31,201 bases of DNA from a bacterium (GTDB lineage: Bacteria; Patescibacteriota; JACMRA01): the NCBI GenBank assembly GCA_043764135.1, contig JAYUKV010000131.1, positions 1-31,201 of the forward strand. The letters are read 5' to 3'. Made by a program: the position numbers and the translations under genes. The notes beneath the pieces are model-generated. The model had not been told where the DNA came from. It worked only from the letters and a program-made list of their open reading frames with translations, and ran no database searches. Below are positions 1-29,677 of the stretch, in pieces. How positions within the stretch are numbered: the stretch's first letter is position 1; every line of letters begins with the position of its first letter.

Positions 1-377
1 CACAACTTTTTTTCTTAAATCATTATCATATCTCATAAATTTAAGACAGTATAGTTGATTAAAATTAATTGTCCAGTTGTGTTATGGGTTAGCTATAAAA
101 ATGAAAACGTCACAATAATAGAATATATCACCAACTTTATAATCTTCATAATTATTTGCTTTTTCTTATATTATAAATAATTAATGCAAAAACTATGCTT
201 AGTAATAGTTGGCCGATTATAAATCCTAGTATCTAGGAAGCATCAGTAGAGTAGTCCTCATTTGGTCTAATTATAAATTGTAATATTAAAAATACAATTA
301 TAGTGTATTTGAAAAATTTTAACTTCATTCTTAATTTGATAACACATAATGTGTTAAAATGATAAATGACAAAAAAT

Positions 378-12191: not shown

Positions 12192-12491
12192 GGTGTTTTC
12201 GAACATACCTCGCCCTTTGGCCACTCCTTTCAACCTTGAAAGGAGAAATTCTTAGAAGTTGATTAACAGATGTTGTAAAACATTTCCATTATCTTATTTC
12301 AAAAATAGAAACTCTGCTTTATTTAAAGAACCTTTCAAGGCTGAACCCTCACCTAAATCTTTTTGCAAAAGATTCAGGAAACCTGAAGGGAACCCTCACC
12401 TAAATTCAAACAGTCGATTTTCTCTAAGTTTTAAATTCAAGTACCTGAGGGGTGCGATAGCTAATAGTGATGTGGTTTGTTCGAAAATATC
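12192..12491. mobile_element. REPIN/MITE-like non-autonomous palindromic element, 300 nt
   Basis: Terminal inverted repeats GGTGTTTTCGAACATACCTC / GTGGTTTGTTCGAAAATATC (16/20); internal hairpin CTCCTTTCAA-CC-TTGAAAGGAG; left end repeated at 18441. Confidence 0.55.
12343..12405 (+). repeat. 16-bp direct repeat GAACCCTCACCTAAAT x2, period 47
   Basis: Exact copies at 12343-12358 and 12390-12405, separated by hairpins AATCTTTT/AAAAGATT and TTCAGG/CCTGAA. Confidence 0.9.
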
Positions 12492-18274: not shown

Positions 18275-18437
18275 TATACTCAAACCACACCAACCCCCAT
18301 CTAATATAGATAGAAAAAATTGGATATAATAGTGACTATTTCAAGCTTCTTATGCTTTGCATAAAAGATTGAGATAGTAGCTATTAGATACTATTTTGGC
18401 ATTTAGATAAGGTGGAGGTTGGTATGGTTTGAGTATA
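18275..18437. repeat. 163-nt fold-back element (candidate MITE or 6S-like ncRNA)
   Basis: Arms TATACTCAAACCACACCAACC (18275-18295) / GGTTGGTATGGTTTGAGTATA (18417-18437) match 20/21; ATCTAA/TTAGAT extension; inner hairpin 18336-18377. Confidence 0.8.
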
Positions 18438-18440
18438 TAT

Positions 18441-18560
18441 GATGTTTTCGAACTTACCTCGCCCTTGGGGCACTCCTTTCAACCTTGAAAGGAGAGTTTC
18501 TTCGAGGCTGATTTATTTATGTTGTATCAAAGTAATTCAAATAGTAGAAATTCTACTTGT
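18441..18560 (+). repeat. Partial second copy of the 12192 element left end
   Basis: GATGTTTTCGAACTTACCTCGCCCTTGGGGCACTCCTTTCAACCTTGAAAGGAG aligns with 12192-12245 with few substitutions; similarity decays through TAGAAATTCTACTT versus TAGAAACTCTGCTT. Confidence 0.9.
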
Positions 18561-28115: not shown

Positions 28116-28139
28116 TCTTAGGTTTTATAAACACACACA

Positions 28140-28172
28140 TTTACCACTTATTTATAGTGGTGAATTTTTTTT
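28140..28172 (+). terminator. Intrinsic terminator
   Basis: TTTACCACT/AGTGGTGAA stem followed by T8. Confidence 0.8.
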
Positions 28173-28185
28173 GTTTTGTGTTTAT

Positions 28186-28348
28186 TAGACTTCCCCACAT
28201 TTAAAATTTTTAATTAGAAATTAGAAAAATATTTAGAATTTTATGATTTTTGTTTTCCTCTTATACCTATGTATAAAGGAAAACAAAAATTGTAAAATTA
28301 TAGATATTTAGCAATTTTTAATAAAATTATTAAATGTGGGGGAGTCTA
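28186..28348 (+). repeat. 163-nt near-perfect fold-back hairpin upstream of the methyltransferase
   Basis: By hand, 73 bp paired and 17 nt unpaired, with a CTAT loop at 28267-28270; outer arms TAGACTTCCCCACATTTAA/TTAAATGTGGGGGAGTCTA. Confidence 0.92.
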
Positions 28349-28386: not shown

Positions 28387-29103
28387 ATGGACTTCTCACA
28401 AGTCAACACACAATTCTACCAAGATATTTTTAAAATTTGGAATAACGAACCTGATTATTATTGGGACGGTTTCTGGTATCTATACAGCTATTTTGATCAA
28501 TGTTTAGAAGGAATTGACTCACCTAGGGTCTTGGATATTGGGAGTGCTAATGGAAGATTCTTTAATTTTCTTGAATTCTGCTGGCCAGAAAAGACGTTTA
28601 TAAAAGTAGGGATTGATTTTGTTGATTTTAAGATGGTGAATAACTATGATTTTATAAAATGTGATATTTCTAAAGAACAGTTCTTAGATCTTGATTTGGG
28701 GAAGTTTGATCTAATTACAGCCTTTGGTGTATTCCATCATATACAGTCACAACAAGTAAGAAATACAATCACTAACAAGATCAGTTCAATGCTATCTGAT
28801 AATGGTGTATTTGTATTTACTAGGTGGAATTTTCTTTTACTAAATAGACTAAGAAAACACATCCTCACACCTGAGCAAATTCCTAATTTTGATGCTAGTA
28901 GTCTAGAATTGGGTGACTATTTTTTAAAATGGGATAAAGGGCAATACTCTATTAGATATGCCAATTTTATGGATATATTCCAAATCGAGCAAATGTTATA
29001 TAAATCTAATTTGAAATGTCTTAATTCATTCAATGCAGACGATAAAACTGAAAACAGGAATTCATACTTCATATGTAATTTGAAAGCAAGGATATATAGC
29101 TAA
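28387..29103 (+). CDS. Class I SAM-dependent methyltransferase (likely start ATG 28387)
   Basis: VLDIGSANG motif I, GIDF, FDLITAFGVFHHI motif IV, LSDNGVF. The ORF-track start at 28336 lies inside the hairpin arm and upstream of a TTGACT -35 box at 28349. Confidence 0.88.
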   Translation: MDFSQVNTQFYQDIFKIWNNEPDYYWDGFWYLYSYFDQCLEGIDSPRVLDIGSANGRFFNFLEFCWPEKTFIKVGIDFVDFKMVNNYDFIKCDISKEQFLDLDLGKFDLITAFGVFHHIQSQQVRNTITNKISSMLSDNGVFVFTRWNFLLLNRLRKHILTPEQIPNFDASSLELGDYFLKWDKGQYSIRYANFMDIFQIEQMLYKSNLKCLNSFNADDKTENRNSYFICNLKARIYS

Positions 29104-29261
29104 TTACTACTAAAAAAAATTACATTTATAACTACAAATATCCCAATATTTATCACTTCTTATTTTACTTTAACCATTGGGTTAAGAGTAAAATAACGAG
29201 AAATAAATATTGGGATATTTTATTCATTCTAAATGTACATTTTTAGTAGTAATTAGCTATA
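29095..29261. repeat. 167-nt fold-back hairpin overlapping the methyltransferase stop codon
   Basis: Perfect 22-bp outer arms TATAGCTAATTACTACTAAAAA/TTTTTAGTAGTAATTAGCTATA; perfect 18-bp AAATATCCCAATATTTAT/ATAAATATTGGGATATTT; 67 bp in total; ATTG loop. Confidence 0.92.
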
Positions 29262-29337
29262 ACTATGATTTTATCTTGCTTATAATTTAATTAGTAAAGC
29301 TATCTAAAGGAATTAGTGACAAACGATTAAATTTCTC

Positions 29338-29371: not shown

Positions 29372-29677
29372 ATGTTAGAATTGCAGGGAAAGTATATGGC
29401 TTTTAAAAAACTTTTCGACACCCAATCTGTCGAAGATATTTATTACAAAACTACCATAATGTGCTCCCATGAAAAGCTTAACTGCCTGAGTTTTTTGATC
29501 AAGTTTTACTTTAAGAGGTTATCAATTTACACCTCTACATGTTTCGACGACGATAGCTATCTAAAAGCTACAATACAATCTCAACAAAACCAAAGTAATA
29601 TTGATAAAGACCTTAAGTTATGGCTAACACGATTATTAGTTATAGATTTATACTATAACAAGACTACATCAAATTAA
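29372..29677 (+). CDS. Hypothetical protein, 93-101 aa
   Basis: ATG-led ORF (alternative ATG 29396) behind a plausible promoter. Confidence 0.6.
   Translation: MLELQGKYMAFKKLFDTQSVEDIYYKTTIMCSHEKLNCLSFLIKFYFKRLSIYTSTCFDDDSYLKATIQSQQNQSNIDKDLKLWLTRLLVIDLYYNKTTSN

Follow-up and report, generated by a model that had tools for sequence, protein, structure and literature searches.

The methyltransferase gene of the window (the complete 31,201-bp contig that was analyzed, one of 156 in a 1.39-Mb, 85%-complete genome) ends inside a long hairpin, and this raises the question of what the hairpin is and why it is there. LeuRS from this genome matched Saccharibacteria, Paceibacterota, and Nomurabacteria MAGs best (45 to 53%), which places the host among ultra-small, CPR/Patescibacteria-like bacteria. 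A preliminary description of the locus had offered an inserted fold-back element, a recombination site with extrahelical bases, or an RNase III-type processing substrate. The hairpin is repeated in the genome, is missing from a sister strain exactly here, and has its ends in common with a resident insertion sequence (IS). It is very probably an IS630-derived MITE, about 163 nt long and flanked by TA at both ends, that inserted at the methyltransferase stop and was presumably mobilized by the resident IS630-type IS. The features of the locus are listed in Table 1.

Table 1. Features of the hairpin locus and related elements in the window
Feature	Positions	Strand	Basis or remarks
Left end of the resident high-copy IS630-type IS	1-97	-	GCTATA terminus at 92-97; transposase start codon at 36-34; gene runs off the contig
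Unrelated 163-nt hairpin upstream of the methyltransferase gene	28186-28348	.	Missing from the X1 strain
SAM-dependent methyltransferase gene	28387-29103	+	Pfam Methyltransf_23/31/12 and homologues; the element supplies the last two codons and the stop (29095-29103)
167-nt fold-back, a family C MITE, TA at both ends included	29095-29261	.	Fold, second copy, covariance-model match
Left terminal inverted repeat, perfect 22-nt arm	29095-29116	+	Outermost 9 nt (TATAGCTAA) identical to the resident IS630-type ends
Left TA (putative duplicated target site)	29095-29096	.	Probably once the TA of the TAA stop
163-nt body of the element, TAGC...GCTA, if TA was duplicated	29097-29259	.	TA-TAGC ends; gapless X1 alignment of the predicted empty site
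Right terminal inverted repeat with TGTACA block (29234-29239)	29234-29261	-	Same block-to-end distance in family B and the IS right end
Right TA, putative target-site duplication	29260-29261	.	Predicted under the same model
Half of an older D-type MITE, decayed, directly past the insertion site	29266-29309	.	Matches the D-family copies of C68 and C65 at 82-83%
Conserved small downstream gene (MAFKKLFD...)	29397-29677	+	45-60 bp after the methyltransferase gene in relatives, 293 bp here
Half of a family B MITE, contig broken in its loop	31106-31201	+	Sister family of the hairpin

The hairpin is a 67-bp rod that contains the methyltransferase stop codon

In RNAfold the segment formed one rod with 67 pairs and an energy of −68.7 kcal/mol, compared with a mean of −18.2 kcal/mol for dinucleotide shuffles (z = −15.9; none of 200 as good). 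Three parts of the preliminary description were reproduced: the 67 bp, the 22-, 8-, and 18-bp outer helices, and an apical ATTG loop (29176 to 29179). Its inner helices of 4, 9, and 6 bp became 3+12+4 pairs in the minimum-energy fold, and the opposed 3-nt bulges that it had drawn gave way to a 2×2 internal loop and single bulges. The 167 nt are noncoding: they contain no independent reading frame, and their terminal arms are perfect over 22 nt. As had been read from the sequence, the left arm begins inside the coding sequence: the nine bases from 29095 are TAT AGC TAA, the final codons and stop of the methyltransferase gene. The reported lack of a terminal U-tract also held, with no T-tract 3′ of position 29261 and no entry at the hairpin in a terminator scan, which did list an ordinary 10-bp terminator at 28139 to 28165. 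An identity as an intrinsic terminator, with a GC-rich stem of 5 to 15 bp and a U-tract directly behind it, was rejected. An Rfam scan of the whole window found no family at gathering score.

The hairpin belongs to a repeat family with a covarying sister family

Comparison of the genome with itself revealed more than 20 long palindromes of 120 to 175 nt that fall into several sequence families, and at least 61.5 kb of the assembly consists of repeats. The family of the hairpin, family C, has two full copies only. The second (C126:8222-8386) is 93% identical, lies in the opposite orientation a few bases past the dcd terminator, and folds at −44.9 versus −68.7 kcal/mol, its differences being mostly uncompensated, as expected of a neutral inserted copy. 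Family B elements, likewise 167 nt long, are about 65% identical to family C from end to end; the family numbers about 24 copies, and contig ends truncate most of them.

A joint alignment of families B and C predicted 72 pairs, with 95% of the cells paired. Between the two families, 25 pairs were altered on both sides, versus 0 to 8 when the partners were slid, although these 25 compensatory pairs amount to effectively one divergence of B from C and not to many independent events. The sequences of the internal loops and the apical loop are conserved between B and C. Moreover, in families A, B, D2, and F (163 to 175 nt), transition mismatches between the arms are nearly all G:T on one strand (6:0, 10:0, and 5:0), and one strand therefore folds 20 to 35 kcal/mol better than the other. 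This bias is a property of the family founders; copy-specific changes are unbiased, and family C shows little bias. The better-folding strand had no preferred orientation relative to neighboring genes, with 8 sense and 11 antisense family B copies and 5 and 6 family A copies at 3′ ends.

Searches with the hairpin DNA against 40 relatives returned weak AT-rich matches only. The B+C covariance model, run against 26 genomes of the family, hit the window's own genome and, weakly, one 146-nt element in genome G041 that has the ends in common with B and C but not the rod. No match was obtained for the methyltransferase alignment among public genome contigs or for the left flank among public metagenome contigs, and the conserved loop gave two unrelated chance matches.

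A sister strain lacks the hairpin exactly at the methyltransferase stop

The two closest homologues of the methyltransferase (79% and 75% protein identity) are encoded on metagenome contigs. On both contigs the same small gene (M.FKKLFD...) follows after a much shorter spacer than in the window (Table 1), and the spacer upstream lacks the 163-nt hairpin. The spacer beyond the hairpin is long because the decayed D-type MITE half occupies part of it. Contigs of a public sequencing run, X1, are about 96 to 97% identical to the window; the match ends at 29092, and 30 reported bases then align from 29262. These contigs also skip 28175 to 28346, so the upstream hairpin is missing as well. The methyltransferase ends in ...NLKARN* in the X1 strain versus ...NLKARIYS* in the window, and comparison of the C termini, KARN* without the element and KARIYS* with it, places the switch exactly at the hairpin boundary. 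A contig of a further run, X2, spans the left junction of the filled allele.

We compared two duplication models, a TAGC...GCTA body with a TA duplication and a GC...GC body with a TATA duplication, and both predict the pre-insertion sequence ...AGG ATA TAA CTATG.... This sequence aligns with the X1 allele, a single diverged empty site, without gaps (41 of 50 matches, score 32), and the two TAA stops coincide. The alternative alignment, a 169-nt insertion without duplication, includes a 4-nt gap and scores 28. Because the gapless model outscores it, insertion into the TA of the old stop is favored. The X1 allele has no TA directly at the break, and every copy of families B and C has a TA at both ends. 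For family C no offset gave a flanking 3-bp direct repeat; only TA or TATA fits. The sequences are thus compatible with a TA target-site duplication rather than proof of one.

These observations lead to a model in which a multicopy resident IS of the IS630 family (Tc1/mariner type) would move the MITE in trans, and the MITE would have inserted at the TA of the original TAA stop of the methyltransferase gene. The old stop would have become TAT, with AGC TAA supplied by the MITE, so that ...KARI* turned into ...KARIYS* and two residues were gained. The mRNA would then hold a 67-bp hairpin between the methyltransferase gene and the next gene, which may affect the transcript.

The hairpin shares its ends with a resident IS630-type element

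The first 97 bases of the window are an end of a high-copy IS, with the end sequence TATAGCTAACCC. Contig ends formed by this IS bear TATAGCTAACCC... and TATAGCTAACTC...; 18 contig ends, that of the window among them, carry the left end TATAGCTAACCCATAAC..., and 13 others bear the matching opposite end, TATAGCTAACTCATAGCTCAACTGTACA..., so that the IS is present on 31 contig ends. About 40 of the 312 contig ends lie within TATAGC-type elements. The outer 9 nt of the hairpin are identical to both ends of the IS, and a TGTACA block lies about 23 nt in, at an equal distance from the end in family C, in the right end of the IS, and in both arms of family B. The ends of family B, family C, and the resident IS all read TA-TAGC.

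Sixty-one nucleotides into the IS end, a reading frame starts with MRYSNDLRKKVVKLITDQ...SRTTIDSWL. The first 40 codons of this frame (MRYSNDLRKKVV...SRTTIDSWL) resemble the N terminus of an IS630 transposase in G011, a genome of a related genus, whose start, MSRYSNDLRLKVI...SRPTLDFWL, is parallel to it. The G011 transposase lies 36 nt behind the end sequence TATAGCCAATTCCT, and the two overlapping frames of its IS belong to the IS630 family (NF033545, 110.5 bits; DDE_3, 100.8 bits). A 152-nt MITE in G011 has the TATAGCCAATTCCT end and about 40 nt beyond it in common with this IS. Its interior is not fully palindromic, and the perfect rod is therefore specific to the window's genome. In G011 the 152-nt MITE, with about 26 end-sequence matches, is found for example at L101:536-687, and the multicopy IS630 element that shares its ends at L123:1-918. 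The motif TATAGCYWAWT... is multicopy in other genera of the window's family, with 26 matches in G011, 10 in G013, and 4 in G008, compared to 0 to 1 for the reversed control; a search for a full IS behind the G013 matches found isolated end sequences only.

A DDE_3 search of the 85%-complete assembly of the window's genome returned no match, the interior of the IS lying outside the bin. Missing interiors are usual for high-copy repeats that collapse in assemblies. Since the resident IS is visible as about 95 to 180 nt at contig ends, its assignment to IS630 is based on 40 codons and the end sequences. Mobilization of the hairpin is presumably the work of this IS630-type transposase. Altogether, a second copy, a sister family of about 24 copies, an empty site, and ends common to a resident IS630-type IS bear out the inserted fold-back element of the preliminary description.

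Other explanations account less well for the hairpin

A hairpin kept mainly for a host RNA function, as an RNase III site, a 3′-end stabilizer, or a terminator independent of a U-tract, would fit several of our observations. The 67-bp stem with its perfect 22-bp helix is of a length that RNase III can use (from about 20 bp), an RNase III gene is present (C10:5454-5852, 133 bits), and in Neisseria the enzyme cleaves Correia elements within transcripts (PMC10969869, PMC2229807); the 25 compensatory pairs between families B and C also speak for such a function. We nonetheless consider it unlikely. The element is missing from a near-identical strain and from relatives that retain both genes, the same sequence is decaying at an unrelated locus on C126, sister-family copies are not preferentially oriented (8 versus 11 in B, 5 versus 6 in A), and both a U-tract and an Rfam match are absent. 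As a side effect, cleavage of the probably co-transcribed hairpin by RNase III is plausible; it is not the reason for the hairpin's presence. Still less probable is a REPIN- or IS200/IS605-like element, for which an HUH tyrosine transposase would mobilize a folded single strand without duplicating the target. The one-strand G:T mismatches of the 163- to 175-nt families, covariation of the entire rod, the X1 alignment with an exact 169-nt insertion, and Y1 transposase remnants on C110 and C83 are in line with that mechanism. The hairpin, however, has true terminal inverted repeats common to an IS with an IS630-like N terminus, this end sequence also borders an IS630 transposase in G011, and the gapless TA model scores higher. 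Furthermore, the Y1 matches on C110 and C83 are IS200/IS605-type genes broken by an in-frame stop and frameshifts, with no such hairpins adjoining them, and both a REPIN/RAYT identity and a link to a Y1/TnpB element were rejected on these grounds.

The recombination site of the preliminary description did not hold up. If the two hairpins around the methyltransferase gene were attC-like folded sites with extrahelical bases, they would mark the boundaries of a mobile gene cassette; they do match in size (163 and 167 nt), flank one gene, and both contain bulged bases. The X1 strain, however, has the methyltransferase gene in the same place with neither hairpin, and the two relatives retain it together with its downstream neighbor, likewise without hairpins. 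The two hairpins also belong to different repeat families that are scattered singly beside unrelated genes, and the ends read TATAGC, with no AAC/GTT core; we give a cassette hardly any credence. A chimeric fold-back arising in assembly is just as improbable a source. Palindromes do interrupt this assembly, many contigs of which end in such repeats, and a perfect 208-nt palindrome stands at the start of contig C117, but the hairpin is internal to a 31-kb contig, and the X2 contig crosses its left junction. An identical hairpin is present in two other public assemblies, which possibly come from the same sample and are hence partly independent at most, and both the second copy and the sister family have diverged from it. 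An assembly artefact is excluded because of these diverged copies and the other assemblies. This leaves the IS630-derived MITE as by far the best explanation.

Further repeats in the window and the genome

Several other palindromic repeats were recorded. The upstream hairpin represents a different, essentially single-copy family with the ends TAGACTTCC; all five of its arm transition mismatches are G:T on the + strand, and the X1 strain has 18 other bases in its place. A 163-nt family A hairpin with the ends TATACTCAAACC lies at 18275 to 18437 of the window. Family A has 12 copies in the genome and is strongly strand asymmetric (e.g., −84 versus −60 kcal/mol; G:T to A:C, 6:0). GC-richer terminal modules (TTTCGAACATACCCCGCC...) at 12192 to 12491 and 18446 to 18495 of the window belong to a further repeat family with about 20 matches, and modules of the TTTCGAACATACCCCGCC type form composite palindromes of 143 and 338 nt on C28 and C88. 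Family D (122 to 129 nt; e.g., C13:18782-18903 and C51:8346-8467) has the same base beside the terminal TA on both sides in 11 of 12 copies, which suggests a 3-bp duplication (AAT, ATT, or TTT) and not TA. On C51, one family D copy sits inside the loop of a family B element; as an empty site this case is ambiguous.

IS5-family ISs (NF033580) are present at C124:1142-2048, C117:572-1475, and C113:7755-8821, with A/T-only 3-bp duplications (ATA, ATA, and TAT). A 123-nt MITE at C134:5403-5525, flanked by TAA, has the end sequence GAACCTGTTTAATTAATCC of the C117 and C124 ISs, and this IS5-family IS and MITE form a second, independent pairing of the kind in the window's genome. A link between the IS5 family and the hairpin at the methyltransferase gene was rejected, the IS5 ends (GAACCTG and GAGGCTG) being unrelated. 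The 208-nt palindrome mentioned above (C117:1-208) opens a 2.7-kb contig, beside an IS5, and looks like a fold-back artefact. At C110:291-700, the IS200-type Y1 transposase gene is broken by an in-frame TAA and a frameshift.

Discussion

The closest described analogue of the hairpin is RUP with IS630-Spn1. RUP of Streptococcus pneumoniae is a 107-bp element with TA as termini and target, ends like those of IS630-Spn1, many intergenic copies, and a long stem-loop (PMC2229807). Both are short noncoding elements with TA termini, a long stem-loop, and ends resembling a resident IS630-family IS. The hairpin described here differs in its 167-nt length, in being a near-perfect rod throughout, and in its unrelated sequence and host phylum, and the transposase domain of its partner IS is missing from the assembly. 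The Correia/NEMIS elements of Neisseria have TA termini with duplication, repeats of about 24 to 26 bp, and co-transcribed hairpins that are cleaved by RNase III, and some are fused to open reading frames (PMC2229807, PMC10969869). The TA termini, the length of the terminal repeats, the long hairpins (in our case probably co-transcribed with the neighboring genes), and the occasional fusion to a reading frame are common to these elements and ours, whereas the sequences are unrelated, our hairpin shows no evidence of an IHF site, and RNase III cleavage, established in Neisseria, is putative here. In addition, the parent IS of Correia is not known, whereas one is indicated for our hairpin.

Other palindromic repeats resemble the hairpin in single respects. 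ERIC (RU-1) of enterobacteria is a TA-ended palindromic repeat, an insertion of which removed a stop codon and gave new C-terminal residues and a new stop (PMC2759123); it measures 127 bp and can contribute as many as about 35 residues, compared with two here. YPAL (RU-2) of Yersinia, at about 167 to 168 bp, is palindromic and equal in length to the hairpin, but it has no TA termini, contains internal inverted repeats, is not AT-rich, and makes 3- to 26-bp duplications (PMC2229807); the match in length appears coincidental. REPINs with their RAYT share with our families long hairpins kept by compensatory change and a strand-asymmetric fold. They differ in that no RAYT-like gene is flanked by the hairpins studied here, whose ends match a DDE-type IS.

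The hairpin MITE is an ordinary kind of selfish DNA whose full-length hairpin is unusually well kept. Cut-and-paste transposition needs the ends only; the full-length palindrome and the 25 compensatory pairs exceed this need, and something else must also act. One speculative reading, which we regard as improbable, is that the whole 167-nt rod is kept folded on one particular strand, beyond the ends that bind transposase. It draws on the compensatory pairs between B and C, the conserved loops, and the one-strand G:T mismatches of the sister families. If true, these CPR MITEs would depend for their spread on a single-stranded form specific to one strand, or would act in such a form, for which a hairpin DNA intermediate and a transcribed RNA controlling the IS630 transposase are candidates; neither is part of textbook cut-and-paste transposition.

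For this locus the consequences are minor: the stop codon gave way to that of a selfish element, a variable tail became two residues longer, and a large hairpin now separates two genes that are probably transcribed together. On the scale of the genome, where the finding matters more, at least 100 hairpin repeats of about eight families, together with the high-copy IS630-type element, make up at least 4.4% of a reduced genome of about 1.4 Mb. CPR lineages are usually regarded as streamlined. The mobile repeats differ between strains that are about 96 to 97% identical, indicating that the mobile load is recent and active. Our literature search found no description of MITEs in CPR/Patescibacteria, and these phyla go unmentioned in the text of a 2024 survey of prokaryotic MITEs. 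The full-length fold, preserved and strand biased, gives a tangible starting point for asking why certain bacterial MITEs remain perfect hairpins.
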